IMG/VR virus record: IMGVR_UViG_3300025066_000037 | Span: 1 to 53,104 of that record | Direction: 5' to 3' (one strand) | DNA: 53,104 nt | DNA from: a virus | Lineage: Duplodnaviria > Caudoviricetes | Shown here: piece by piece, positions 1 through 53,104 of the stretch | How positions within the stretch are numbered: position 1 is the stretch's first letter | How the letters are laid out: every line of letters begins with the position of its first letter | The notes under the pieces: generated by a model | What the model saw: the letters and a program-made list of their open reading frames with translations, nothing else | What the model was told of the DNA's origin: nothing | Databases searched by the model: none | Made by a program: the position numbers and the translations under genes

Positions 1-134
1 TCGAAGGTGATGATACTGATCTGACGGTAACTTCCGGTGCAGATATCAACCTGACTGCTACTTCTGATATCAATGTTCCAACAGATGTAGGAATTACCTT
101 TGGTGATGACGGTGAGAAGATTGAGGGTGATGGA
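1..134. repeat. Terminal overlap, copy 1 (matches 52971-53104)
   Basis: 1-134 is identical to 52971-53104 except position 20 (T vs C). It lies inside the tandem-repeat tail fibre gene. Confidence 0.95.
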
Positions 135-1277
135 ACAAATCTAACCATCTCTTCCTCCGCTATTGCTACTGTAGATGCAGGTACAGATATCGTTCTTGAT
201 GCTGATGGTGGTGATATCTTCTTCAAGGATGATGGCACTACGTTTGGTTCGATGACCAACACAAGTGGTGATCTAATCATCAAGTCTGGTACGACTACTG
301 CAATGACGATGAGCGGTGCCGATGTAACCTTCGCAGGAACCGTGACAATCGGCAGTGCTGGTATCTCTGAGGCAGAGTTAGAAATTTTAGATGGTGCTAC
401 TGTAACTACCACTGAACTGAACATCATGGATGGCGATACCTCTGCCACTTCAACGACTGTTGTTGATGCAGATAGGGTTGTATTCAACGATGACGGCACC
501 ATGAAACAGGTAGCTGTTACTGATCTTGCTGCATACTTAGATGATGAAATCACTGCGATGCCTAATCTTGTAACTACAGGTGCATTGGATAGTGGCTCTA
601 TTTCATCTGGTTTTGGTAGTATTGATAATGGTACTTCCAACATCACCTCCGGTGGGTTGCTTTCAATTGACGTTGATGCAGATGCAGATGATCGTACAGG
701 AGATAGTGCTACTGGTCGCCTAACAATCGGTGCCAGTGAAGATTTGAACCTGTATCATGGTGGAACTAACTCTTATATCGTAAATGATACTGGTGATCTA
801 GTTGTAGATACTGCCGGTGATATTGTTCTTGATGCAGATGGAGGAGATGTTTTCTTCGGTGATGACGGTGTTACCTTCGGTTCTGCTACGAATACCAGTG
901 GTAACTTGATTATTAAATCCGGTACGACTACTGCACTGACCTTCAGCGGTGCTAACGTAACTGCTGCTGGTACGATTGGTTCTGGTGCCATCACCTCTAC
1001 TGGTACTGTAACTGCTACTGGTTTCACAATCGGATCAGCAGAAATTACTGAAACAGAATTAGAAATTCTTGACGGTGCTAATGTAACCACCAGTGAGCTA
1101 AACTTATTGGATGGTTCAGCTAAATCTACATCATCCATTACTATTGCGGATACCGATGCATTCATTGTGATTGATGGTTCAACTACAAAACAAATTCCTG
1201 CATCTGATATTAGTACGTATGCTGGTGGTGGTATTACAGAAGGTACTGCCACGGCATTGGCGATTGCTTTGGGATAA
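1..1277 (+). CDS. Tail fibre protein, 3' part (continues from 51848 across the contig junction)
   Basis: The frame starting at nt 3 is open and in frame with ORF 252..1277 and with the ORF from 51848. The joined gene is 2400 nt (~799 aa). It is G/T/S/D-rich with internal duplications (DIVLDADGGD; ELEILDGA.VTT.ELN) and ends in ALAIALG. Confidence 0.85.
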   Translation, partial: EGDDTDLTVTSGADINLTATSDINVPTDVGITFGDDGEKIEGDGTNLTISSSAIATVDAGTDIVLDADGGDIFFKDDGTTFGSMTNTSGDLIIKSGTTTAMTMSGADVTFAGTVTIGSAGISEAELEILDGATVTTTELNIMDGDTSATSTTVVDADRVVFNDDGTMKQVAVTDLAAYLDDEITAMPNLVTTGALDSGSISSGFGSIDNGTSNITSGGLLSIDVDADADDRTGDSATGRLTIGASEDLNLYHGGTNSYIVNDTGDLVVDTAGDIVLDADGGDVFFGDDGVTFGSATNTSGNLIIKSGTTTALTFSGANVTAAGTIGSGAITSTGTVTATGFTIGSAEITETELEILDGANVTTSELNLLDGSAKSTSSITIADTDAFIVIDGSTTKQIPASDISTYAGGGITEGTATALAIALG

Positions 1278-18541: not shown

Positions 18542-20455
18542 TCACACCAAATCCACAATCTCACAGAAATCGCCCGTGCAGTTCAAAGTTTGCGATCCGT
18601 GCGTGTTATCTTCGCGCTCATATTCGCCAAGACGCTTCCAATCTATGCTGCTGGGCATCCGCTTCAACAGTGCAGCGTACTCCATTTTAGTACAATCCTG
18701 ATACGGAGCCTGTTCGTAGATATGTTCTGACATTGGAAGGAAGCTGACTCCAGACATCGTGGAGAAATGTTTGAATACGAATGCTCCTACTTCCAACCAC
18801 TCCTCCTCTCTGACGCTCACCGTGATACTGGGTTTGTGTTCGCACCAGTACTCTGCGTAGACTTGCCATATACGAAGATGGTCAAGTGCAGATAAGTTGT
18901 GGCGAGTGATGGCCCCCGTAGGCGCTTTAACGGGAAACGAAAATACAGCAGTCGTTTCAGGTTTCTTATTATCGTCCTCAACAGGAACACCAGCATCAGT
19001 CATGAACTCAGTGAGCGGGTCTTTCTTATCGGCCCGTACTGTTCTGATGTAATACTCCGAATGTCGGGGATGAATACCGGAGGCAGCATCGACAAGCTGA
19101 CTGACTGTGCCGGACGGCTTGACGCACGTAATGGCAGCAGACGGTTCTATGTTCAGCATACCCGCCCACTTGCTATTGACATTAACTGCGCTCACCCTAA
19201 GACTACTCAGTATCGCGGGAAGATCGTCTTTCGTTTGATTAGCCAACATCGCATTATCCAAGATGCCGGTAAGAGAAACACCTAACAACCTTTCCTCCTC
19301 TGTATTCTTAATCCACTGCCGACCTAATCCTTTAAGATCAGTGAAGCATGATTGGATCGTACCCAGAATTGTAGCAAGTTCTATTTTCTTCTGTAGTGTT
19401 TTGGGTGTATCGTCAGCGCGCACTACAACTTCGCTCAAATTACAGAACTGTTTAGGACGCAGTATGATCTCGCTGCACGGGTTAGTTCCGTATTCCGTAT
19501 CAGCGTCCCGGCGTCCATATCTAGCGGCCTGTATCTGTGCAGCTTTGCGATTAAATATACCGCGCTCTCCAGACTTACTTGCATACAGTGCACTCCACTC
19601 TCGCAGGAATGAGCCTGTATCCAAAACGTCTGTGTAGCATACAGAATTATTAGCGAATGAGCGGTGCGGATGAGTGTTCCACCAATCGCCGCTCTTGGCA
19701 TGCCGCATGCGATCATCAGATAGGTTCGACAGGCTGATCAGCGCAGACCTACGGACGCCGCCAACTACAACAACATCAGCAATCTTGCACATAAGGTCGT
19801 GGCACTCCAAGCTGGTTAGCTTCCTGCCGCTTGCATTCTTAAACATACTGCTGGTTAGCTGAAATAATTCATTTAGCGGTTCTGGGCCGCTGGCTCTACC
19901 ACCAAACGTCTTTAACTTTGCTCCCTGTGGCCGCACCTTAGACATATCCCACTTCGGTATCTGTCCGGCGTACAGAAGATTGATTAGCTCCTTGAACGCT
20001 TTGAACCATCCCTCCTTACTGTCCTGTACCACTATGCACGTTTCGCTATATTCAACATTCTCTGGAATGGACGGCAACTGATTTATGAATTGCCGTTCAA
20101 CAGAAAAGCCTACTCCCGTGCCGTGCATCAGGATATACAGACATTCATCAAATGATCTGGGACTATCAACAGGAAGATAACTACAATTGTATGCAGCAAT
20201 GTGGTTACGTTCCAGTGCATGTCCTGCCGTCATCATTGCCCTCATGGACGGCATCACCTGCATGGTCACAATCGCTGTATACAGGTCAGTGTATACTTCT
20301 TTAGGCATCGTGAAGTCATGGTTCTTCTCTAAGAAATACTTATAAAAATCAAGCAGCCGTGTTACCGTCTCCTCCCATGTCTCTCTGCGACCTTCCTCCT
20401 CAAGCCAACGACTATAACGAGATTGATGAATGAACGCTTGATAATCAGTCTTCAT
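18542..20455 (-). CDS. nrdJ: Class II (adenosylcobalamin-dependent) ribonucleotide reductase, monomeric type
   Basis: YNCSY, GGVRRSALISLS, GTNPCSEI, TCVKPSGTVSQL and C-terminal CTGDFCE; no beta-subunit gene present. Confidence 0.92.
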   Translation of the reverse strand: MKTDYQAFIHQSRYSRWLEEEGRRETWEETVTRLLDFYKYFLEKNHDFTMPKEVYTDLYTAIVTMQVMPSMRAMMTAGHALERNHIAAYNCSYLPVDSPRSFDECLYILMHGTGVGFSVERQFINQLPSIPENVEYSETCIVVQDSKEGWFKAFKELINLLYAGQIPKWDMSKVRPQGAKLKTFGGRASGPEPLNELFQLTSSMFKNASGRKLTSLECHDLMCKIADVVVVGGVRRSALISLSNLSDDRMRHAKSGDWWNTHPHRSFANNSVCYTDVLDTGSFLREWSALYASKSGERGIFNRKAAQIQAARYGRRDADTEYGTNPCSEIILRPKQFCNLSEVVVRADDTPKTLQKKIELATILGTIQSCFTDLKGLGRQWIKNTEEERLLGVSLTGILDNAMLANQTKDDLPAILSSLRVSAVNVNSKWAGMLNIEPSAAITCVKPSGTVSQLVDAASGIHPRHSEYYIRTVRADKKDPLTEFMTDAGVPVEDDNKKPETTAVFSFPVKAPTGAITRHNLSALDHLRIWQVYAEYWCEHKPSITVSVREEEWLEVGAFVFKHFSTMSGVSFLPMSEHIYEQAPYQDCTKMEYAALLKRMPSSIDWKRLGEYEREDNTHGSQTLNCTGDFCEIVDLV

Positions 20456-20594
20456 CTAACGGTAACTCCTCTTGTGTGTTTTGTGCCTGTGTCTGTGCCT
20501 GTAAAATACCATTGATGATATGTGCAACTTCTTTATACGGCTGCTTCGCAAGATAGTTCAAGATTTCATTTATAAGATTATTCGGCAGTTCCAT
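20445..20594 (-). CDS. Small hypothetical protein
   Basis: MELPNNLINEILNYLAKQPYKEV...; SD AAGGAG favours this start over 20642. Confidence 0.6.
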   Translation of the reverse strand: MELPNNLINEILNYLAKQPYKEVAHIINGILQAQTQAQNTQEELPLDED

Positions 20595-20605
20595 CTTCTT
20601 CTCCT

Positions 20606-20998
20606 TCATACTAATCTTTTCAAATTCGGTGGTTGATAGCAATCAGACTTAATGACTTTGCCATCTTCTCTGTATATTGGGTTGCCGTCTGCATCAAGCT
20701 TAGACATGTTTGAAGTATGTACACGGTTGAATGCAGAATCAAAGTCCCAACCGTAAGTAACAGCAAACCCAACGCACACATAAACCAGATCACAAAGTTC
20801 TTTAAGTACATCATCACTCTTATCATTACTGATAGCATCTATCAACTCCTTATACTCTTCCTGAATAAGATTCTTTCGTAGATTCTTTTCACCATCAATA
20901 ACAGATGAAGGTTTAGGGTACTCCAGCCCAATGGGATGCTTAAATGCACGATGAAAAATTCTAAGCTTATCCTGTACCGTTTCGCTTTTACCCATCAT
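20606..20998 (-). CDS. MazG-like/PRA-PH family nucleoside triphosphate pyrophosphohydrolase
   Basis: LIQEEYKEL...LKELCDLVYV...FNRVHTSNMSK...REDGKVIK motifs. Confidence 0.88.
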   Translation of the reverse strand: MMGKSETVQDKLRIFHRAFKHPIGLEYPKPSSVIDGEKNLRKNLIQEEYKELIDAISNDKSDDVLKELCDLVYVCVGFAVTYGWDFDSAFNRVHTSNMSKLDADGNPIYREDGKVIKSDCYQPPNLKRLV

Positions 20999-21299
20999 TG
21001 TTTCCCTCTCCCTTCTGTCTAATCTCCCTGTCCTTATTTATAATCTTCTCTGCCTCAAGCTGTGTATCCCTATCTCCATACTTTCCTAATCTGGAGATAA
21101 CGGATTGAGGTAATCCACCCTCTAGCGCACATGCCCACGCATCTTTCATTGTGCCGTGAGCATACTCCTTTCCATCAACAACAAAAGCTCCTGTGAACGG
21201 GTTGTATTTACACTCACTGGAAAAATAAACACTGCTGGCTGCGCTACTTATTAATACAAGCGGAACAGCTACTGCTATAATAATAAATTTTTTATTCAT
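20988..21299 (-). CDS. Exported/membrane-anchored hypothetical protein
   Basis: MNKKFIIIAVAVPLVLISSAAS signal-like N-terminus and two Cys; SD GAGGAGG. Confidence 0.6.
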   Translation of the reverse strand: MNKKFIIIAVAVPLVLISSAASSVYFSSECKYNPFTGAFVVDGKEYAHGTMKDAWACALEGGLPQSVISRLGKYGDRDTQLEAEKIINKDREIRQKGEGNNDG

Positions 21300-21465
21300 C
21301 TTCTTCCTCCTCAAAAAGAGCGCGTCTGATATCCTTTTCAGTAAATCCCATCAATACCATGTTATTAGTGAATTGTTCTGGGGTATCCCTTCCGTACTCA
21401 AACATGCTGATAAAATGATCTACTTTTTTAGACCAAAAGGAATACTGCATTTCTTTAAGAAGCAT
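21292..21465 (-). CDS. Microprotein (57 aa), paralog of 28031..28207; not in ORF track
   Basis: MLLKEMQYSFWSKKVDHFISMFEYGRDTPEQFTNNMVLMGFTEKDIRRALFEEEEDE; overlaps both neighbours; SD GGAGG. Confidence 0.7.
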   Translation of the reverse strand: MLLKEMQYSFWSKKVDHFISMFEYGRDTPEQFTNNMVLMGFTEKDIRRALFEEEEDE

Positions 21466-21718
21466 CCCCGCCCTCCAATGTAAAATTGCCGTATGTTTCT
21501 ATTAATGCCTCCAGATACCACCGCGCCTTACACAAGTCCTTATATGGTTCTGCTGGGTGCTTGTGCTTGTGCCTTGAAACGTACTTGATTATGTTGCCCT
21601 TCAAGTATCCGTGAAACTCTTCAGCGGACATGCTGTGCTGTATAATCTCAATCGTTTCAACAACATTAGTGTTATAATGTGAAGGGTTGTTTATTTCAGT
21701 ATCCATTTTATTTTCCAT
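21455..21718 (-). CDS. DUF3310 family protein (T7 gp1.7 nucleotide-kinase-related)
   Basis: INNPSHY...ETIEII...GYLKGNIIKYVSR..HK...DLCKARWYL. Confidence 0.85.
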   Translation of the reverse strand: MENKMDTEINNPSHYNTNVVETIEIIQHSMSAEEFHGYLKGNIIKYVSRHKHKHPAEPYKDLCKARWYLEALIETYGNFTLEGGDAS

Positions 21719-22082
21719 TTGTCTTTTTGTAATCAGCGAAATTCAGGATATCCGCAGAGCCATTCAGCGTATTTGAATCATTTTCAGAAAGAAGATACAT
21801 TGCTCTACAGTACCCCATTTCTACTACGTCATCAAAACTGTTTTCAATAATATCCAATAGGCCGTGAGTTAAATAGAATACTGGCCCTTCAAGAGCTTCC
21901 TTAGTCAGGTTATCGATGACACTAACTTCAACTCTCTCTATGGATGATTTCTTTGTCTCCTCCTGTTCTTCATCTATATCTACAGACCTTCTACTTATGA
22001 TAATAGATATCGAATCATTTGGAAGAGATTCATATATACCTTGAAGTCTTTCCGGCACACTAGTATCGTCCTCTTTATCCAT
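21708..22082 (-). CDS. Acidic hypothetical protein
   Basis: Likely start MDKEDD (SD AAGGA), 124 aa. Confidence 0.6.
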   Translation of the reverse strand: MDKEDDTSVPERLQGIYESLPNDSISIIISRRSVDIDEEQEETKKSSIERVEVSVIDNLTKEALEGPVFYLTHGLLDIIENSFDDVVEMGYCRAMYLLSENDSNTLNGSADILNFADYKKTNGK

Positions 22083-22461
22083 GTCGCTTTCCTTTTCCTT
22101 TATTATTGCTGAACCACTTTTTAGAGGGGCGCTCATCTGAGTAATCGAAATTGTGCTTATCGCACCAATTCGCATATGTCATCTTCGACCCTTTTCCTAT
22201 CCTGTTTGAAGAATTGCCGAATACAAACTTAACGTCAATTCCTAGCTGCTCCCTTATAAGAAGGTGGCGTGTACGCTCTTGAGAATCGTGAAAGTATCCC
22301 TTACCCTCTATATAAAAGTCATCATCAGGAATATAAAAATCAGGAAGGTACGTCCTTACTTTAGGTTGGTAGGAAAGTCTTTGAGCTTCATACTCAAAAA
22401 CGATCTTACTTTCCTCAAGCGCCTTCGCTATATTCCTTTCAAGGTTTGATCTGTATTTCAT
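22075..22461 (-). CDS. T7 endonuclease I-like Holliday junction resolvase
   Basis: YRSNLE...FEYE...YLPDF...IEGKGYF...TYANWCDKHNF. Confidence 0.88.
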   Translation of the reverse strand: MKYRSNLERNIAKALEESKIVFEYEAQRLSYQPKVRTYLPDFYIPDDDFYIEGKGYFHDSQERTRHLLIREQLGIDVKFVFGNSSNRIGKGSKMTYANWCDKHNFDYSDERPSKKWFSNNKGKGKRHG

Positions 22462-22925
22462 AGTTCCTCTAGTTGTGATATTTTAATGTTATAACAAGAA
22501 TGCTTGAATATGAAGTTGCCCTCTTTGTCTCCCTTCTTATGATAGGTGCTGTTGTCTTTGAAGTCTTTCTTGCTAATGTGTCCCAGTACCCATCCTTTCT
22601 GATAGTCGCTTAATACACGAACAAAGATGTATCCATCACAATCATAATCTATTTGGAAATCAGTAACGGAACAATCATAATCAGGTTTTGGAAGATATCC
22701 TGTTAGTTTTGTCTTTATGTCAAGGCGGCGACCATCTGGCAACACTAAGTCGTATTTGAATGTATTAATTAATTCTCCACCGTATACGCTTTGTGCCAGA
22801 TGTTCGCCTATAAATCCTACAAAATTCCCATCTCCTTTAGTTATAGACCTCCTTACAACGCCAAGTTTCTTAGCTTTCTCATGAGCGATCTTGACTATAT
22901 CGCTGTCTACTTCTACCTCTTTCAT
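22458..22925 (-). CDS. Putative PD-(D/E)XK nuclease-like protein
   Basis: GFIGE...YDL...RLDIKTK...DGYIFVRV pattern; likely start MKEVEV. Confidence 0.55.
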   Translation of the reverse strand: MKEVEVDSDIVKIAHEKAKKLGVVRRSITKGDGNFVGFIGEHLAQSVYGGELINTFKYDLVLPDGRRLDIKTKLTGYLPKPDYDCSVTDFQIDYDCDGYIFVRVLSDYQKGWVLGHISKKDFKDNSTYHKKGDKEGNFIFKHSCYNIKISQLEEL

Positions 22926-22932
22926 TTTGACC

Positions 22933-23316
22933 TCACATCTTTTTTTCAGATAGCAGTTGAATATTTTGCATGTACTTTTCAATATACGCCCACGTTTTAG
23001 GACTTATCTTGAAATACTCAGATACATTGATATCGAATGTTTCATTACTATAAACAACAGGAGCAAGCTCCAGCAGTAGAGAATTAACTATCTTAAAGTC
23101 GTGTTTTATCTTCAAGACGTTTGCATCATATGTGGCATCAGACCAATATGAATTATCGAAGGCGTGTTCATCCTTTTTAACACGTATCCCTATAAAGTTG
23201 CTGTTCTGTCTAAACTGTAGATGTCCTGATCTATTATCATTATCGGAAAATAGATAATACACAGACGGGTTCATCTGCAAGTCTTCTGGAAACACTCGTT
23301 TCTGGTATATTAACAT
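22933..23316 (-). CDS. Conserved phage hypothetical protein
   Basis: VYYLFSDNDNRSG...NFIGIRVKK resembles a common phage Y.FGDN...GI.TK family; likely start MLIYQK. Confidence 0.5.
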   Translation of the reverse strand: MLIYQKRVFPEDLQMNPSVYYLFSDNDNRSGHLQFRQNSNFIGIRVKKDEHAFDNSYWSDATYDANVLKIKHDFKIVNSLLLELAPVVYSNETFDINVSEYFKISPKTWAYIEKYMQNIQLLSEKKM

Positions 23317-23317
23317 A

Positions 23318-24916
23318 TCAAAAAGCCTCTGCGTCCAGTTCATCGTCATGGTTAAGGGGTATCTCAGTTAGCCTACCTGTGTCAAGCCCATACAACAAAT
23401 TATTTGCTGGGCCTGTGAGGCCGCTGAAGCGGTTCTTAATCACTCTGACTGTGGTCGTATGCCTTTCCCGTAAATCCGCTGCCTGACCGTCTCGCTCAAG
23501 CCCTAAGACTATATCTGATAGCTGCCCTATGGAGCCTGATCCGCGAAGCTGATGGAGCTTGGTTCTGCCGCCCTCCTCATGGCCGTAATCAACGCGCTTC
23601 AGATGCGAGGCTACAAACATACATATATCTAGCTCCTGTACCAGTGTCCTCAACTTAGTCATAATCTCATCAAGTGCTTTACGCTCATCCATGTTAGACT
23701 GATCTGATACAAGGATACTGACGTGATCTAAAAAAATGTACTTACACTTCAGTATACGAACCATGTATCGCACACGAGAGATTATGTTATCAATAGAGTT
23801 ACTTCCAAAATGATCAAAGAAGAACACCCGGTCCTTTTCGAGCGTATTTTGAAACGCACTCTTTAGCTCCTCCTCAGTATATTCAAAGTTAGGCAGATGT
23901 ATAGGCTTATTCATTTCCAAACCTATCAGCGCCTGTGCTGTTCTAGTTACGCTTTCCTCAAGAAACAGAAGCCCAATGTTCTGCTCTGTTTCGTTGAGAA
24001 TGTGGAACGCTATTTCACGCATAAACGATGACTTGCCAAGACCGGAACCAGCAGCAATAGTGATAAGCTCACCACAACGTATTCCGTATGTCAGATTGTT
24101 CAAACCTTTGTACGGATAGGATACCTCACTTTCTGTCGGCCCTGCCTTAACATCCTCCCACAGAGAAGCACCGGAGATAATGCCCTCTGGTGTATACTTC
24201 TCTGAATGCCACCAAAGACGCTGAAACTCCTTTTCATCATTACTGGTAAGATACTCATTAGCATCTTTTCTGTTTAGGTGGACTATCTCTGCTTTGGGAA
24301 GAAGTAGTTCAGCGACTTCCTTTGCCGCCTTGCGCCCAACATCATCATTGTCAAAGCATATCTTGATAGTATCAAACTTATTTAAATACTCATAGTTATC
24401 AGAGACATCCTTTACGGCGCTTTTTACTCCTGACTTTATAGAAATCACCGGCCACTTACTTCCTAGCATCTGGAAGGTTGAAAGGGCATCTACTTCCCCC
24501 TCTGTGATGGTGATGAACTTTCCACTATTGAAAAGTGATTGACCAAACAGCGTAGCTGATGGAAACTTTCCTTTAGTGGAAAAGGTCTTACTTTCAACTC
24601 CTCTCTTTTTGTATGCTACGCGCACATGATCACTATCGTAATACGGGAAATACCACTCCCGCGATCCTTTGGTGACGTTAAAGAACTTACATGTACTTTT
24701 TGAAATACCTCTATCGGTCATGGCTTCTAATGTACCTATATCAAGTTCCATGCTCACCTCTTTCTTTATAGATACGTCTAGTAGCGTCCTATTACCGGCA
24801 CTACTGTGTTTAATCCCACATGAAAAGCAGTATGAATTGCCGTCTTGATAATATGCTACGGCATCGCTGCTTCCACAATCGGCACAGGGCTGATGGGTCT
24901 TAACATATCTGGTCAT
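23318..24916 (-). CDS. T7 gp4-like DNA primase-helicase
   Basis: Zn finger CADC...CFSC; TOPRIM ITEGEVDA and CFDNDDVG; Walker A AGSGLGKS; IFLDHVSI; LRGSGSIGQLSD; KNRFSG. Confidence 0.95.
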   Translation of the reverse strand: MTRYVKTHQPCADCGSSDAVAYYQDGNSYCFSCGIKHSSAGNRTLLDVSIKKEVSMELDIGTLEAMTDRGISKSTCKFFNVTKGSREWYFPYYDSDHVRVAYKKRGVESKTFSTKGKFPSATLFGQSLFNSGKFITITEGEVDALSTFQMLGSKWPVISIKSGVKSAVKDVSDNYEYLNKFDTIKICFDNDDVGRKAAKEVAELLLPKAEIVHLNRKDANEYLTSNDEKEFQRLWWHSEKYTPEGIISGASLWEDVKAGPTESEVSYPYKGLNNLTYGIRCGELITIAAGSGLGKSSFMREIAFHILNETEQNIGLLFLEESVTRTAQALIGLEMNKPIHLPNFEYTEEELKSAFQNTLEKDRVFFFDHFGSNSIDNIISRVRYMVRILKCKYIFLDHVSILVSDQSNMDERKALDEIMTKLRTLVQELDICMFVASHLKRVDYGHEEGGRTKLHQLRGSGSIGQLSDIVLGLERDGQAADLRERHTTTVRVIKNRFSGLTGPANNLLYGLDTGRLTEIPLNHDDELDAEAF

Positions 24917-25755
24917 AGTAATTCTTCAACTTGAGGTTCCTTTTCAACGTGAGTAAGGTATCTGTATCCATTCGAATACTTGAAGGTTCTTATTCCTGTA
25001 CCATCATTGGAGTCAGACCAACAATTATACTTATGGTGACACCACCTGCATTCGGACGGAAGTTTCCTGTTCCCGTTATTTTCAACCTGTTCTTCATAGC
25101 AGCGAACAGGCGGCTCACTCTTGGCTATAATTTCACGCAACTCATCAATGCGTTTAGACGCATCAAGCGTACTCATATCTTCAACAGATAGCAAGGCTAA
25201 ATCGCCATACTGCTTGTCAATGGCAAGGAAGGCCCCTTCATCCATGTCCAACGCTTGCATGTATCCCGATATCTGATAGATGTAGCCGAAGGGATCATTC
25301 GAGAAAAGCTCACCACGAGAGAACTTCTTGAACCCGTAGCTTGAAGAAGTCTTAACATCGACTACTACATCATCGATGACAGCATCAATGTGACCCTTGA
25401 TACCGTTAAGGGAAACCTCCTTCTGCATGTCACGTACATCATGGTTAGCTGCCTTACATAGAAAAAGTAGGAAGCCCTCCAGCAGATGCCCATAGAAAAA
25501 TTTAATTCGCTCATTGGGCTTTAATTCTTGCTCAATAGGCTCATGAAAGTCGTACCACATTTTACGTTTGTCTTTTCCAATATTAGACATACGCAAAGTA
25601 GCTTTTCTATTTTTTTCTCGCTCCTCCTTACTGAAAAAGGTATGCACCTCTCTTTCAATAAAGGAAAGAAGGAACTTCATGTCATCTTCATGAACTTCAA
25701 TACCTGAATCAATTATTTCATAGATATCTTTTACAAGAGTATCGACAGTCTTCAT
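24913..25755 (-). CDS. PD-(D/E)XK exonuclease (Cas4/RecB-like fold)
   Basis: LRMSNIG, GHIDAVIDDVVVDVKT, YQISGY and C-terminal CRWC.....C. Confidence 0.8.
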   Translation of the reverse strand: MKTVDTLVKDIYEIIDSGIEVHEDDMKFLLSFIEREVHTFFSKEEREKNRKATLRMSNIGKDKRKMWYDFHEPIEQELKPNERIKFFYGHLLEGFLLFLCKAANHDVRDMQKEVSLNGIKGHIDAVIDDVVVDVKTSSSYGFKKFSRGELFSNDPFGYIYQISGYMQALDMDEGAFLAIDKQYGDLALLSVEDMSTLDASKRIDELREIIAKSEPPVRCYEEQVENNGNRKLPSECRWCHHKYNCWSDSNDGTGIRTFKYSNGYRYLTHVEKEPQVEELL

Positions 25756-25860
25756 TGTAGCATCTCCTTGTAATGTAAATTATGGAAGGCCCGTCCCTCA
25801 CCTTTCCAAGTGTTAACCCCAGTTGTGATTAACCCCTACCATCAGTATGTTACTCTAAAA

Positions 25861-26265
25861 CTATATTACTTCATCTTCCGTGTCTGACTCCTCTGCGTCC
25901 AGTTCTTCCATTTCGTACTCAACAAGATTAACAACCATCAGTTGATTAAGACCAAGACTGACCCCAGATTTTCCTTTGTAAGTCCAATCATACGGTTTGG
26001 CCGAAATCTTAATAGTTGATCCGTTACCGATAACAGTATCGTCCCACAGACGCTTCGAAGCATCCATAACTCTTGGAGGACGTACCGCCTTCGCAGTAAC
26101 GTAGCTGCCGCGCTCCTCATCATTCTTAATAGGAACGCCAGAACTTTCTAGCTGCTTCACTACCTCAGAAGACAAATTACATACGTCTACCTGATACTTG
26201 TTGGAAAGATTGTTGGGCTGTCCTTCAAGAACACGCGCCCACATTGAAGTTCCTCGTATAATCAT
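25861..26265 (-). CDS. Single-stranded DNA-binding protein (T7 gp2.5-like)
   Basis: IGNGS...GVSLGLNQLMVVNLVEY plus an acidic C-terminal tail; adjacent to the polymerase. Confidence 0.8.
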   Translation of the reverse strand: MIIRGTSMWARVLEGQPNNLSNKYQVDVCNLSSEVVKQLESSGVPIKNDEERGSYVTAKAVRPPRVMDASKRLWDDTVIGNGSTIKISAKPYDWTYKGKSGVSLGLNQLMVVNLVEYEMEELDAEESDTEDEVI

Positions 26266-26290
26266 ACTATATCTCCTTATTTAAGTTTTG

Positions 26291-28018
26291 TTAATGTTCA
26301 GCATCATACCATGTGCTGCCTACTCCTACATCGCATGCTAGTGGACAACGTAAATTCAACCGCTGCCCTGCTTGCTTGATACCATCTTCGCATACCTTTT
26401 TGAAGATGTCAAGACTTTTTTCACCCACTTCGTAAATATATTGATCGTGTACACTGCATACCAGTTGGGCCTCAAGTTTTTCCGCCCGAATGCGCCTGTC
26501 CATTTCGATGGCCCACTGCTTACACACAATCGCACCGGCACCCTGTAGCAGCGTATTCAGTCCAGCATGGGGAGAGCGAATGTGGATACGCCGCCCGTCT
26601 AGTCCGTTGACATATCCGTACTGCGATGCCTTCTTTATGACCTGCTCCTGTAATCTTTTAAGATCAGGCATATTTGTTAGAAACCTATTCTTCAGTGTCG
26701 ATCCTGTCTTCGCTGATCCACCTACAATGGAACCAATCTTCTCCGCTCCTGCGCCATACAGAAAAGCATATATGAACGTCTTTGCCTGTGAACGAGTAGA
26801 CAACCCCGCTGCATTCATGTTAGCCGTATGCGGATCACCATTGACAACTTCGTTAGTGAACGCATCGTTATTCATGTAGTGCGCCAGCATCCTTAATTCA
26901 AGGCCAGACGCATCAGTATCTACAAGAACACTTTTTGTTGGCGCTATAAAACATTGCCGTGATTCTTTTCCGTATATTTTGTTAGAAGATACGATGTTAG
27001 CCATATTGGGTTCAGAGTGCGTCATGCGGCCTGTTACCGCGCCCATCGTAAATACTTTACCGTGTACCCGCCCATCTGCGCTGGATGCGTCAAGCCAACT
27101 CTCTATAGTCTTCCAGCGTGTTTCAAGAGTTTTCCATAATACAAGGTTCTTCACTGAACTGGGCGCAGCATCCGATAATGTCTCTAAGTTCTCCTCGCAT
27201 ACCTTTGGTGCGCCTTTGGGTGTAAATCTTGTTGGCTTCCATCCGTATTCGTTCATGCGCTCTACAATTTGTTTAGGTGAACCTAAGTTAAAATCCTCAT
27301 ATCTGATAAGCGTATGGTTCCCCACAGATTGACTGATATCTTCAATGTGGGACAGCCCTACTTTGGAAATACTGCCGTCCTTCTTCTTTTTAATTACAAC
27401 GTCCTTGACTGCACGAACCTTTGGCTTGAAAAAGGATTGTATGTTGCTTTCTATTTCTTCGCTTCTTGTTTTTATTTCGTATAGCAACTCAGACGCTTTT
27501 TGTAAATCAAGAAGAAAACCGTACCTTTCCTGTTTGTTAATGATATGCCGTATGTTGTGTTCAAGGGATATACTTGTGTTAGAAAATCCCGGCTGTTCAT
27601 ACATCATCAAGTATTTGTATATAGCTTCTGTTACCTCTACATCGTTGATGCAGTACTCAAGCATAGTCTCTGAATATTCGCTGAAATCAGAGAACTCTAT
27701 TTTTCGCTTACCTACTAAGCTGGACAGGTTGTTAAGGGAATGTCCACCCTTTCTGTTAGGATTAAATAAATATGATAATACAAGAGTATCCGTTATCTGT
27801 GACACCTTTATATTTGTACCCCACAGCTTATTTAGAATAGGGGCGTCAAATGATAAGATGTTGTGTCCTATAAATTTTTTGTAGTCCTTGATGTAATCAG
27901 CAAATTTTGTTGGATTTGTAAATGTTCTTATTTCCTTTGTGTTTGTATCTTTTGTTGCTACTACCCATATCTTAGTAGCATTGAGCGAATCAGTTTCTAT
28001 ATCAAGAACCAGTGCCAT
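26291..28018 (-). CDS. polA: Family A DNA polymerase with 3'-5' exonuclease
   Basis: LDIETD, GHNILSFD, YCINDV, TGRMTHSEPNMAN, DASGLELRMLAHY, RSQAKTFIYAFLYGAG and VHDQ. Confidence 0.96.
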   Translation of the reverse strand: MALVLDIETDSLNATKIWVVATKDTNTKEIRTFTNPTKFADYIKDYKKFIGHNILSFDAPILNKLWGTNIKVSQITDTLVLSYLFNPNRKGGHSLNNLSSLVGKRKIEFSDFSEYSETMLEYCINDVEVTEAIYKYLMMYEQPGFSNTSISLEHNIRHIINKQERYGFLLDLQKASELLYEIKTRSEEIESNIQSFFKPKVRAVKDVVIKKKKDGSISKVGLSHIEDISQSVGNHTLIRYEDFNLGSPKQIVERMNEYGWKPTRFTPKGAPKVCEENLETLSDAAPSSVKNLVLWKTLETRWKTIESWLDASSADGRVHGKVFTMGAVTGRMTHSEPNMANIVSSNKIYGKESRQCFIAPTKSVLVDTDASGLELRMLAHYMNNDAFTNEVVNGDPHTANMNAAGLSTRSQAKTFIYAFLYGAGAEKIGSIVGGSAKTGSTLKNRFLTNMPDLKRLQEQVIKKASQYGYVNGLDGRRIHIRSPHAGLNTLLQGAGAIVCKQWAIEMDRRIRAEKLEAQLVCSVHDQYIYEVGEKSLDIFKKVCEDGIKQAGQRLNLRCPLACDVGVGSTWYDAEH

Positions 28019-29476: not shown

Positions 29477-29621
29477 AGTATGCCTCTAAATCCTCGTCTA
29501 TGTCATAATTCTCGTCGTATTTGCTCTTTGCCCTTTTGATCCGCTGCTTATATTTAGGTGTTCGCAAGTCTTTTGCAATGGGGTTGTAGCGCACCCGTTG
29601 CTTCTTACTTTGCTCTTTCAT
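29448..29621 (-). CDS. Small basic/acidic protein with ArfA-like N-terminal motif; not in ORF track
   Basis: MKEQSKKQRVRYNPIAKDLRTPKYKQRIKRAKSKYDENYDIDEDLEAYYEDAKKPDS; SD AAGGA; first gene of the leftward operon. Confidence 0.6.
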   Translation of the reverse strand: MKEQSKKQRVRYNPIAKDLRTPKYKQRIKRAKSKYDENYDIDEDLEAYYEDAKKPDS

Positions 29622-29702
29622 TTTGTTAGCCTGTCCTTTTTGTTAGCATGTTGCTTTTGTTAGCACGGCCCTTTTTGTTAGTCAATCCTTTTTTTTGTTA
29701 GC
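29621..29702. repeat. Five direct repeats TTTTGTTAG(C) (iteron/operator-like)
   Basis: GTTAG cores at 29625, 29642, 29659, 29677 and 29697 (spacing 17, 17, 18, 20). Confidence 0.85.
29657..29685 (-). promoter_or_regulatory. Leftward sigma70-like promoter overlapped by the repeats
   Basis: The - strand reads TTGACT-17 nt-TAACAA with TG at the extended -10 position. Confidence 0.5.
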
Positions 29703-29748
29703 CCATCACTCCATCAAGACGCAAGATTGCTTACGGCCTGTATGTCCT

Positions 29749-29776
29749 ATTATAATGGCTGTTTTGGTGATGTCAA
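29749..29776 (-). promoter_or_regulatory. Leftward consensus sigma70 promoter for the replication arm
   Basis: The - strand reads TTGACA-16 nt-TATAAT. Confidence 0.8.
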
Positions 29777-29790
29777 GCCTTTTCTGAAAA

Positions 29791-29830
29791 TGTGATCGGC
29801 TGTAACACTCTGTAACACTTTGTGACTTGA
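29791..29830. promoter_or_regulatory. 10-bp-phased TGT(A/G)A boxes between divergent promoters
   Basis: tgtgatcggc tgtaacactc tgtaacactt tgtgacttga at 29791, 29801, 29811 and 29821. Confidence 0.55.
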
Positions 29831-32461: not shown

Positions 32462-32671
32462 ATGAACAGAGACATTATGAACGCAATCTTTCCAGAGGAA
32501 ATGAAACTGATCATGTCTGGCCGGTGTCCGGTTTGCGCCAAGGCACCATTGCGCGATAAGACGGGCGAACTGGTATTCCGCGATGAACTTAGCCGGGAAG
32601 AATACAATATCAGCAGAATGTGCGAACCGTGCCAAGATGATGTATTCGGCAACCCGGCGGCGGATGATTGA
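32462..32671 (+). CDS. Small zinc-finger protein
   Basis: CPVC...FRDELSREEYNISRMCEPCQDDVF; SD GAGGA. Confidence 0.75.
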   Translation: MNRDIMNAIFPEEMKLIMSGRCPVCAKAPLRDKTGELVFRDELSREEYNISRMCEPCQDDVFGNPAADD

Positions 32672-32730
32672 CAGAATGTCCATATCCATCGATAATGGGC
32701 GAACCACAAACAAACAAAAGGAAACTTGAT

Positions 32731-33012
32731 ATGCTACAGGAAGATGCAACACACAATATTGACACACTAAGTGACTTCATGGCACCTCACAAAGTAGACG
32801 AACCAGCACAAGTTACATGCTTTCGGGAGTGGATTGGCAAGGCGCAACGTGCCATCGATGCCAATGACTACAAACTAGCAAGGACGTTTGTGCGCTTGGC
32901 GCATTCTTCTGCGGAGGCATTCCACGTCAAGGACAATGGCGTCATCGAGGTGCGTACATCAAAGTGGATCGATACCGCATACAGCCAGACAGACCGGCTG
33001 ATCACCTCGTAG
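32731..33012 (+). CDS. Hypothetical early protein
   Basis: Likely start MLQEDA with SD AAGGA (the track gives 32668). Confidence 0.6.
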   Translation: MLQEDATHNIDTLSDFMAPHKVDEPAQVTCFREWIGKAQRAIDANDYKLARTFVRLAHSSAEAFHVKDNGVIEVRTSKWIDTAYSQTDRLITS

Positions 33013-33025
33013 TCTAACCGACAAC

Positions 33026-33070
33026 ATAGCGCCAGCATCTGGGATAGTCCGGTGCTGGCGTTATTTTGTT
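33026..33070 (+). terminator. Rho-independent terminator ending the early block
   Basis: ATAGCGCCAGCATC...GGTGCTGGCGTTAT stem followed by TTTGTT. Confidence 0.8.
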
Positions 33071-33272
33071 GGACAGGTTCGCACGTGCGTGCGCGGGTGC
33101 ACGTGACATGATAAGAGGATACAGGGGGGCCCCCTTATGAGCGGATTTAGAGGGGAGATTATGGGATCAGTATTTGGCAGATTATAAGGGCCGCCGGACT
33201 TTCCAAAATCTATATTATCGGGTTACTTTTGAACCAAGGTGATGCATATTTGCAACATAAAAAAGATATATA

Positions 33273-33285
33273 AATCAATAGGTTA
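33273..33285 (+). promoter_or_regulatory. IHF consensus site
   Basis: AATCAATAGGTTA matches WATCAANNNNTTR and is preceded by an A-tract. Confidence 0.6.
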
Positions 33286-33415
33286 CGGGGCATGGTCCAC
33301 CCGCCCCCCCGTATATGAATATATGCAATACCGCGAGAAAATTTGTATTTTTAAACCGTATGCATGTTATGTGCACACATACAAAAAAAAAAAAAATGAA
33401 CGAACCATCATCTGG

Positions 33416-33490
33416 ATTCGCTCACCCCTATTCAGATTCGCTCATGCTATATATTCATGAGTATTCGCTTATTCTTCCAAGTTCGCTCAT
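33416..33490. repeat. Four TTCGCT(C/T)A boxes
   Basis: At 33417, 33437, 33464 and 33482, directly downstream of the leftward promoter. Confidence 0.7.
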
Positions 33491-33533
33491 TCTATATAGA
33501 GGGGGTATGCACCCCCCGTACCTATAAGTACTT

Positions 33534-33562
33534 ATTATAGGGGTAAATTCACGATTTGTCAA
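33534..33562 (-). promoter_or_regulatory. Leftward consensus sigma70 promoter with no obvious downstream CDS
   Basis: The - strand reads TTGACA-17 nt-TATAAT with an upstream A-tract. Confidence 0.8.
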
Positions 33563-33777
33563 GTCTTTTTTTATTTTTTTTTTAATTGCTCTGTTTTTGA
33601 AATATAACCCGTTGAAATTATTAACAGATTCGACACGATGTAACTTTTACGCCAATAGTGTAATTTTATTGTCTTCCTACCTAACATGCACAAAACTTAC
33701 ATCGTGCTTATTTACCCAATGTTTTCAAGTACTTAATTTTCTATTTTTATTTTTTTCTATTTTTTTAAAAAAAAGAC

Positions 33778-33806
33778 TTGACAAATCCGTATTTTGACCC
33801 TATAAT
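33778..33806 (+). promoter_or_regulatory. Rightward consensus sigma70 promoter for the packaging/morphogenesis arm
   Basis: TTGACA-17 nt-TATAAT with an upstream A-tract. Confidence 0.85.
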
Positions 33807-33970
33807 AGATAAGTAAGGGAAGGATTAAGCGAATACTTGTCGTGTCACGGTAAGCGGAATAATATCCACTTCCTCATCATACTCACAGATATAAACAGAG
33901 AAGTTACGGATATTCACCCGCACCTTATCTTCCTTTTTCATACATACTTTGTAAATTTGAAAGCAATGCT

Positions 33971-51847: not shown

Positions 51848-53104
51848 ATGGGTAATACATACACAAGACAATCCACTTACGTTGACGGCGATGTTGTTCA
51901 AGCAGCAGATTCTAATGATGAATTTGACCAACTGGTATTAGCCTTTACTGCTGCTTCAGGCCATTCACATGACGGTACTTCTGCTGAAGGTGGCGATGTA
52001 ACTAAGCTGTTAGGTACGGCTATTACGATTGGTGATGGCACTGCCGGTACAGATATTGCAGTTACCTTTGATGGAGAATCAAATGATGGTGTCCTTACGT
52101 GGATGGAAGATGAAGACCATTTTAAGTTTAGTGATGATGTTGTTATTGACAGCACTAAGCGGTTGTATCTTAACGATGAGGGTGGAGAATATATCCACGG
52201 CGACGGTACAGACCTCTACCTTGTATCCGGCGCAGATATTAACATTCCCGCTGATATTGGCTTAACTTTCGGAAATGACGGGGAGAAGATTGAGGGCGAT
52301 GGAACCGATCTCACTATTTCAGGTAATAATATTAATCTCACTGCTGTTGCCGATGTCAATATTCCTAGTGGTGTGGGTATCACTTTTGCGGCAACGGAAA
52401 AAATCGAATCAGATGGAACAGACCTTACGGTCACGGTTGGGGCCGGTGGGGACGTTAACATCCCAGCGGATATCGGCATTACTTTCGGTGATGATGGTGA
52501 GAAGATTGAAGGTGATGGTACTGATCTTACAATTTCAGGTAACAATATTAATCTCACTGCTGTTGCTGATGTGGTTCTACCCGCCGATGTAGGAATTACA
52601 TTTGGTACTGGCGAGAAGATTGAGGGCGATAACACCAATCTTACAGTAACTTCCGGTGCTGCCATTAATCTTACCGCAACTACTGATGTTGTTATTCCAA
52701 CCAACGTAGGTGTAACCTTCGGTACTGGTGAAAAGATCGAAGGTGATGATACGGACCTTACGGTTACATCAGGTGGAGCGATTAACCTTACTGCTACAAC
52801 GGACGTAGTTGTTCCTACTAATGTAGGTGTAACCTTCGGTACAGGCGAGAAGATTGAAGGTGATGATACTGATCTAACTGTAACATCAGGTGGAGCGATT
52901 AATCTTACTGCAACTACTGATGTGGTTGTTCCTACTAATGTGGGAGTTACGTTTGGTACAGGTGAGAAGATCGAAGGTGATGATACTGACCTGACGGTAA
53001 CTTCCGGTGCAGATATCAACCTGACTGCTACTTCTGATATCAATGTTCCAACAGATGTAGGAATTACCTTTGGTGATGACGGTGAGAAGATTGAGGGTGA
53101 TGGA
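51848..53104 (+). CDS. Tail fibre protein, 5' part (runs off the end, continues at position 1)
   Basis: MGNTYTRQS..DGDVVQAADSNDEFDQL..AF....GHSHDGT..EGG N-terminus; open to the end. Missing from the ORF track because there is no stop in the window. Confidence 0.85.
   Translation, partial: MGNTYTRQSTYVDGDVVQAADSNDEFDQLVLAFTAASGHSHDGTSAEGGDVTKLLGTAITIGDGTAGTDIAVTFDGESNDGVLTWMEDEDHFKFSDDVVIDSTKRLYLNDEGGEYIHGDGTDLYLVSGADINIPADIGLTFGNDGEKIEGDGTDLTISGNNINLTAVADVNIPSGVGITFAATEKIESDGTDLTVTVGAGGDVNIPADIGITFGDDGEKIEGDGTDLTISGNNINLTAVADVVLPADVGITFGTGEKIEGDNTNLTVTSGAAINLTATTDVVIPTNVGVTFGTGEKIEGDDTDLTVTSGGAINLTATTDVVVPTNVGVTFGTGEKIEGDDTDLTVTSGGAINLTATTDVVVPTNVGVTFGTGEKIEGDDTDLTVTSGADINLTATSDINVPTDVGITFGDDGEKIEGDG
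52187..53104 (+). repeat. Tandem ~38-40 aa (mostly 114-120 bp) repeats in tail fibre
   Basis: EKIEGDxTDLT(V/I)xSG..INLTAxxDVxxPxxVGxTFG units at ~52283, 52398, 52499, 52613, 52730, 52847, 52964 and 53084, plus a degenerate unit at ~52187. Confidence 0.92.
52971..53104. repeat. Terminal overlap, copy 2 (matches 1-134)
   Basis: 133/134 identity to the window start. Confidence 0.95.

Follow-up and report, generated by a model that had tools for sequence, protein, structure and literature searches.

What are two perfect, divergent host-type promoters, mirrored together with two further pairs of boxes about a single axis, doing upstream of the terminase genes of a marine podophage, when one of the two faces DNA without a conserved gene? 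The locus lies in an IMG/VR record of 53,104 bases (class 'linear', estimated completeness 99%), the whole of which was analysed and is referred to here as the window. The window phage is a marine podophage of the HMO-2011/HTVC103P type, phages that are among the most abundant marine viruses, and the large terminase it encodes at 35478-37094 shares 47-55% identity with the enzymes of Pelagibacter phages HTVC115P/103P/104P, of Roseobacter CRP phages and of Puniceispirillum phage HMO-2011. Replication genes occupy the minus strand (18542-28018: RNR, MazG, primase-helicase, Cas4-like nuclease, gp2.5-like SSB and family A DNA polymerase), and the plus strand carries the packaging and structural genes, which run from 33971 to the record's end and resume at position 1 as far as ~18380. 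The record is probably a broken circle from which a few bases are missing; ORFs 3..1277 and 51848..53104 run off its ends and are mutually out of frame across the junction. A domain search of the large unknown ORFs found no single-subunit RNAP domain, and a six-frame search for T7-type RNAP (PF00940) gave no match, the search's own controls being unmatched too. Most genes carry Shine-Dalgarno sites (GGAG or AGGA, 6-10 nt upstream), and the promoters match the proteobacterial consensus. The element itself is located in a 960-bp stretch (33012-33971) without an ORF of at least 100 aa; blastn of 33000-34400 against deposited phages found no match, Rfam gave 0 matches at E <= 1 over 32500-34500, and a tRNA scan of the whole window found 0 tRNAs.

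Two nested inverted repeats define the element, the outer with 40-nt arms (33533-33572 and 33768-33807) that are 85% complementary and the inner with 15-nt arms (33634-33648 and 33692-33706) that are complementary at 14/15 positions (93%). The outer arms hold two divergent sigma-70 promoters of the form TTGACA-N17-TATAAT, each matching the consensus at 12/12 positions as the first-pass annotation had read them, and only one more promoter of this quality, at 29776 (-), is present in the 53,104-base window. P_left (33534..33562, minus strand) has its -35 TTGACA at 33557-33562, a 17-nt spacer, its -10 TATAAT at 33534-33539 and a predicted start at ~33527, whilst P_right (33778..33806, plus strand) has its -35 at 33778-33783, the same 17-nt spacer, its -10 at 33801-33806 and a predicted start at ~33813. 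Each is preceded by an A/T tract resembling an UP element, at 33563..33604 (-) for P_left, with an A-run on the promoter strand, and at 33736..33777 (+) for P_right, where a T-tract is followed by an A-tract. UP elements are A/T-rich tracts at ~-60 to -38 that are contacted by the RNAP alpha-CTD; A- and T-runs adjoin the -35 box in 10/10 aligned arms, the tracts being putative UP elements by comparison with the general consensus only.

Between the promoters, and on the same axis, lie a pair of IHF-like boxes and a pair of CGATGTAA-type boxes, here called distal boxes. The left IHF-like box, TTTCAACGGGTTA, is at 33605..33617 (-) and the right, TTTCAAGTACTTA, at 33723..33735 (+), each centred at ~-84 from the predicted start of its own promoter. 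The left distal box, CACGATGTAACTTTT, is at 33634..33648 (+) and the right at 33692..33706 (-), each centred at ~-114, both distances assuming a start 7 nt after the -10 hexamer. The boxes thus lie where the first-pass annotation had placed them, and the coordinates of all three pairs sum to 67340. They enclose an asymmetric 43-bp core (33649..33691) that is unconserved in sequence, differs in length by up to 3 bp among relatives and, at ~37% G+C by direct count, is not A+T-richer than its surroundings. Both IHF-like boxes match WATCAANNNNTTR at 12/13 positions, with T for the consensus A at position 2. Matches to TTCAANNNNTTA number three in the window, two of them in the boxes, at 33605-33616 (-) and 33724-33735 (+), against a chance expectation of 4.3; this count is unremarkable, so that it is the mirrored placement and the conservation of the boxes that matter. 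The distal box CGATGTAAMTTT has no further copy in the window at 0 mismatches. It holds a -35-like TTTACA, followed 16 nt on by AAT-rich hexamers abutting the IHF-like box, a layout compatible with secondary binding of RNAP, with binding of a regulator or with contact by the alpha-CTD.

The symmetry is a property of the phage DNA and not of its assembly, as the first-pass annotation had also held. Contigs from four independent runs (Logan; pieces 33408-34300, 33383-34300, 33501-34300 and 33388-34300) span the axis at 33670 with 0-4 differences, which rules out a chimeric join. A coding reading of the element was likewise ruled out, since its open frames vary in frame and length among six relatives.

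Relatives were taken from a terL-anchored IMG/VR scan that yielded 80 loci (574,479 bases examined), many of them near-duplicates. A divergent pair of perfect promoters stands upstream of terL/terS in 36/80 of these, a count that overstates independence because of the near-duplicates, and in a further two loci (L007 and L067) the sequence ends inside the pair. Where the full 6,000 nt upstream is available (12 loci), the pair is always present, and all perfect promoters across the 574,479 bases belong to the element, none of the 36 pair-bearing loci having any other. Among the 44 loci that lack a complete pair, the upstream DNA is mostly too short; in eight it reaches 2.4-4.0 kb and still shows no pair, and there absence and lying out of range are indistinguishable because P_right is up to 4,955 nt from terL elsewhere. 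The pair also provides the sole perfect promoters of two near-complete relatives (56,106 and 49,103 bases) and stands directly upstream of the annotated terS in the isolate Pelagibacter phage HTVC115P; HMO-2011 has no such pair.

By the spacing of their -35 boxes, the pair-bearing loci form classes of 29-41 bp (19 loci), 49 bp (2), 53-67 bp (4), 116 bp (3) and 210-215 bp (8), the last being the window's subclade. Only A/T tracts, and no inner boxes, separate the -35 boxes in the short-spacing forms, and the inner boxes are restricted to the 210-215 bp class (8/36 pair-bearing loci). Since the short-form relatives make do with A/T tracts, the back-to-back pair is, judged from this comparison of loci, the ancestral clade-wide element and the inner boxes an elaboration of one subclade. 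Alignment of the DNA upstream of terS, proposed in the first-pass annotation as a check on the conservation of boxes and axis, bears out the promoter pair in 36/80 loci, whereas the inner boxes are conserved only within the 210-215 bp class and the centre varies there by 3 bp. Relatives without inner boxes have TerS proteins 45-74% and TerL proteins 64-85% identical to those of the window, and phylogenetic profiling found no regulator specific to the window's subclade. When a strict one-arm pattern (distal box, IHF-like box and -35) was scanned over 2.9 million IMG/VR contigs, 12 contigs matched, of which 10 had two mirrored arms; the two single-arm matches were in G+C-rich, promoterless sequence and were put down to chance. 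A looser pattern, superseded by the strict one, had given full arms in 2 of at least 115 loci. A TGTAAAT inverted repeat in the 116-bp class was rejected as weak, being 70% complementary, 7 bp off-axis and missing in L053.

Within the arms of six subclade genomes distances are nearly invariant: 42-43 nt from the -35 box to the IHF-like box in 12/12 arms, 33 nt from the IHF-like box to the distal box in every arm, and 75-76 nt from the -35 box to the distal box on both sides. The separation of the distal boxes from each other differs by 3 bp among the same genomes, and in one of them (L014) the promoter axis and the inner axis are off by 1. A single common axis follows from arms of equal internal length and implies no constraint across the centre; on these spacings the symmetry is that of two equal, self-contained promoter modules rather than of one axis-centred complex. 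The dimeric factor centred on the axis that the first-pass annotation had suggested is accordingly disfavoured, within-arm spacing being fixed to 1 nt whilst the separation of the inner boxes varies by 3 bp.

The arms are also old. AAA.TTACAT.G, TCAA-N4-TTA, ACTTGACAAA and TATAATA in the -10 region are invariant in 10/10 aligned arms, and the spacers between them have diverged. Right arms are 75-84% and left arms 65-85% identical across genomes, compared with 58% between the two arms of the window; because orthologous arms are more alike than the arms within the window, the duplication is old and both copies have been kept by selection. In this respect the first-pass annotation was right to see a selected, symmetric and bidirectional architecture rather than a recent duplication, with boxes and spacing retained in six subclade genomes. 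The IHF-like boxes miss one consensus position in 10/12 arms, and both arms of L023 match at 13/13. In L023 (789-1069) the two arms show no difference between the distal box and the -35 box and are 89% identical over 124 nt, a pattern that points to recent gene conversion between them. The left flank of L023 carries many TATATAG-type repeats instead of GAGCGAAT-type boxes.

Rightwards, P_right heads the terS-terL-portal-structural operon. A terS homologue is found downstream of it in 36/36 loci at a distance of 137-3,156 nt, with small extra ORFs between in some lineages. In the window the leader of this operon (33807..33970, plus strand) has a conserved 5' hairpin at ~33849-33874 around a conserved AATATCCACTTCCTCA, for which eight pairs are predicted, one with a compensatory change among six sequences, and it carries a TAAGCGAAT box at 33826-33834. 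The first gene after P_right (33971..34381, plus strand) is TerS-like (phrog_51, E 1.8e-4), its product being 39% identical to HTVC115P gp81, which is annotated 'putative terminase small subunit'. Unlike most window genes it lacks a Shine-Dalgarno site (33941-33973), and 13 nt ahead of its ATG stands the window's sole exact copy of TGTAAATTT; at the same spot L014 and L017 have a copy of the left-array box.

Leftwards the picture is different. P_left faces 400-700 bp without a conserved ORF in 16/16 genomes examined; it drives no late genes and points into non-coding DNA. The typical order on this side is 2-4 direct copies of a lineage-specific 9-13-nt box, a terminator-like site and a conserved block of ~110 nt. 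In the window P_left would yield a short non-coding transcript (33383..33527, minus strand) with a 5' hairpin, four array boxes and a terminator-like hairpin at 33392-33429 that runs into T14 (33383-33396); the predicted RNA, from 33527 to ~33383, folds at -42.8 kcal/mol (z -2.9). The array consists of four copies of GAGCGAAT, (T/G)AGCGAA(T/C), at 33416-33489. The claim that related RAGCG(G)AAT boxes follow each promoter is thus sound on the left and holds in part on the right, where the box at 33826-33834 is the one good copy and the second corresponds, in relatives, to a conserved leader segment of different sequence. The longest words common to the left and right leaders (7-12 nt) were within the shuffle range in 20/20 loci, and the longest common word is the array box in 3/20 lineages (the window, L017 and L024).

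A terminator-like hairpin with a T-run follows P_left in 20/32 loci, 82-279 nt from the predicted start, as against 7/32 for the opposite-strand control; by the same criteria no such site follows P_left in 12/32 loci. The leftward slot that is empty in the window is a gene slot in the lineages of six relatives (L065 2980-3165 (-), L059, L060, L043, L037 and L047), where a lipoprotein-like 61-aa ORF with a good Shine-Dalgarno site follows P_left, its product having a hydrophobic helix and a Cys, and a strong terminator comes next. In the contig of one independent run the array stretch 33358-33501, comprising the GAGCGAAT array and the A14 run, is replaced by 102 unrelated letters with matching flanks, so that in near-identical strains the repeat array acts like an exchangeable cassette. 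In three other runs the contigs are broken at the A14 run.

Beyond the array lies the conserved non-coding block (33258..33373, no strand assigned), which is ~110 nt long, clade-wide and a candidate pac; nhmmer detects it in the window and in 32 loci, wherever enough flank exists. It holds a perfect IHF consensus at 33273-33285, outside the mirrored element, and a CCACCCGCCCCCCCG run at 33297-33311 that is common to five of the six distinct subclade relatives with flank, L017 differing at two positions. A structured RNA was rejected for the block (RNAalifold, 0 pairs from 22 sequences in the leftward sense), and an apparent G/C flip between L037 and L047 was not upheld by L065. Given the lack of a consensus RNA fold, a DNA-level site is more likely. 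The block model matched nothing at E <= 1e-3 (nhmmer) in the phiM6, HTVC115P and HMO-2011 loci, a resemblance in HTVC115P being by eye only.

A guide to the function of the block comes from Sinorhizobium phage phiM6, for which, according to its genome announcement, PhageTerm predicts a terminally redundant genome with the initiating pac cleavage set as position 1 (PMC6256558). The phiM6 genome has one perfect promoter in all, 321 nt downstream of position 1, no mirrored module, and a terS homologue 600 nt downstream of position 1 whose product is 29% identical to the window TerS-like protein (E 5e-11). Synteny with phiM6 makes the non-coding DNA that immediately flanks the promoter pair the most likely pac region of the window's clade; within it the conserved block at 33258-33373, outside the mirrored element, would be the best candidate. 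For the tie to the terminus proposed in the first-pass annotation, the phiM6 cleavage position offers indirect support only.

The third perfect promoter of the window, at 29776 (-), heads the replication-gene block. Five direct copies of TTTTGTTAG(C), spaced 17-20 nt, occupy the leader downstream of it (29621-29707) and repeat the P_left theme of a perfect promoter followed by a repeat array; an operator, an origin and an RNA motif are all conceivable roles for these repeats. CTGTAACACT occurs in two tandem copies (29800-29819) upstream of a weaker plus-strand promoter at 29827.

Taking these observations together, we hold it probable on balance that the element is the main bidirectional promoter region for host sigma-70 RNAP in a podophage without an RNAP of its own, built of two mirrored, self-contained modules, the products of an old inverted duplication. 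In each, a perfect core promoter would be joined by an A/T (UP-like) tract, an IHF-like bend site at ~-84 and the distal box at ~-114. A bend at the IHF-like site would return the distal box, or its binding partner (RNAP alpha-CTD, a second RNAP or a regulator), to its own promoter, so that bending tunes each promoter in cis. P_right would then transcribe the terS-terL-portal-structural operon, and P_left would give a short, terminated, non-coding RNA across the lineage-specific repeat array adjoining the likeliest pac block. The activator invoked in the first-pass annotation is unneeded, because both cores match the consensus at 12/12 positions and have A/T tracts upstream. The same strength tells against the reading as well: a 12/12 promoter with an A/T tract should need no help from an IHF site and a distal box. 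Nor does it sit easily with the preferred reading that the IHF-like boxes miss a consensus position in most arms, that the terminator after P_left is missing in over a third of loci (12/32), or that the distal box always occurs as an inverted pair (10/10 IMG/VR contigs), which a bridging complex would fit equally well.

Such a complex would consist of a phage or host dimer or tetramer on both distal boxes which, with two IHF-type bends, represses or times both promoters together, which is the 'bidirectional switch' of the first-pass annotation. The boxes are indeed inverted copies that are always paired in the 10 module-bearing IMG/VR contigs, the homogenisation of the L023 arms to 89% identity suggests pressure for likeness, and repression of perfect promoters is more plausible than activation. 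We nevertheless think such a switch unlikely: distal-box separation varies by 3 bp (~100 degrees of helical phase) with within-arm distances fixed, a scan of the 10 neighbouring ORFs revealed no DNA-binding regulator, and most relatives, with promoters 29-41 bp apart, do without the boxes. This last point reaches further. The bridging, origin and pac-assembly readings are all weakened by the absence of the inner boxes from most relatives with the same terminase and by the variable centre, and for the same reason the inner boxes cannot serve the clade as terminus, origin or general late-gene timer, roles that the first-pass annotation had entertained. A replication origin, in which divergent transcription unwinds the intervening A/T-rich DNA or the P_left RNA primes a T7-like replisome and the IHF-like sites and inverted boxes are origin architecture, seems to us distinctly unlikely. 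The phage does encode a T7-type family A DNA polymerase, a gp4-like primase-helicase and a gp2.5-like SSB, the primary origin of T7 is a promoter with A/T-rich DNA, P_left has no gene to express, and A/T tracts and IHF-like sites are typical of origins; but most relatives lack the inner region, the two long ones checked being near-complete, the element has no iterons (its direct repeats are T-tracts only), the core has the G+C content of its surroundings and is unconserved, and a separate five-repeat array stands beside the replication genes (29621-29707).

It is more doubtful still that the element is itself a packaging-initiation complex or pac, with TerS on the mirrored boxes and TerL cutting the asymmetric core. 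The packaging site of SPP1 has a pacL-pacC-pacR layout that invites the comparison, the element lies directly upstream of terS, and the phiM6 pac cleavage is 321 nt upstream of that phage's sole perfect promoter and 600 nt upstream of its terS homologue. Against this, relatives whose TerS and TerL are 45-74% and 64-85% identical lack the inner boxes, the core is unconserved, and the block at 33258-33373, kept in the window and 32 loci, is a better pac candidate. Least probable of all, and by our estimate very improbable, is that the inverted repeats are the substrate of a recombinase, invertase or telomere resolvase. A short asymmetric core flanked by inverted repeats would suit such an enzyme; the ORFs scanned yielded no recombinase-like family, the centre is asymmetric rather than palindromic, and contigs of four independent runs show one core orientation and no joint within 33563-33777.

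The preferred promoter reading leaves room for a more speculative extension, which we also consider unlikely. The twin promoters, array, terminator and conserved block may together form a transcription-coupled initiation site, at which host RNAP fired from P_left crosses a short stretch of lineage-specific protein-binding repeats and stops at the edge of the block and an R-loop, an arrested polymerase or supercoiling licenses pac cutting or replisome loading. If true, this would be a host-RNAP counterpart of the T7 promoter-primed origin and concatemer-junction pause, and the mirrored modules would set the firing rate of the licensing transcript relative to the late operon. Apart from this extension, the perfect-promoter pair offers a handle on how RNAP-less phages take over host transcription, on where packaging or replication starts and on the purpose of the gene-less P_left, questions that are testable in the cultured HTVC115P/HTCC7211 system, and the mirrored module is a natural experiment in how bend sites and distal elements tune consensus-level promoters. 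The word 'promoter' has 0 occurrences in the main texts of four comparative papers (PMC9038755, PMC6918029, PMC8528129 and 10.1101/2019.12.14.876532). Within the literature searched, the gene regulation of HMO-2011/HTVC103P-type phages is unexplored.

Several known systems share parts of this arrangement. The primary origin and concatemer-junction pause of T7 resemble it in that a podophage with T7-like replication genes directs a promoter into non-coding A/T-rich DNA near the packaging region; the promoters here are host-type and not of the phage-RNAP type, and any priming or pausing would be hypothetical. In lambda, pL and pR with nutL and nutR are alike in that each divergent promoter is followed by a short, lineage-specific box in the same RNA sense, whereas here the words common to the two leaders are no longer than in shuffled sequence, no N-like gene was identified and there are no leftward genes for read-through. 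The phiM6 locus differs in its single promoter, the lack of a mirrored module and the want of a match to the conserved-block model at E <= 1e-3, but shares the order of non-coding DNA, perfect sigma-70 promoter, terS homologue and terL. The closest parallels are lambda pL and Mu Pe, strong phage promoters assisted in cis by IHF; work by Giladi et al. in 1998 reportedly placed an IHF site near -85 and a 'distant UP element' at lambda pL. An IHF-like box at ~-84 in both arms, 42-43 nt from the -35 box in 12/12 arms, agrees with that reported position and with a fixed helical face. The likeness extends to a strong host-RNAP phage promoter, A/T-rich upstream DNA, a further element beyond the bend and, in the lambda and Mu control regions, a divergent layout. 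No repressor/operator system was identified here, and IHF binding is predicted. A divergent phage promoter region with IHF-type architecture is thus of an already-known kind. What sets the present element apart from lambda pL and Mu Pe is that the module is mirrored on both divergent promoters, that the cores are of perfect consensus and that one promoter is geneless; the mirrored duplicate module, the clade-wide perfect pair in abundant marine phages and the gene-less leftward promoter adjoining a conserved block are features that the literature searched (main texts) does not describe.
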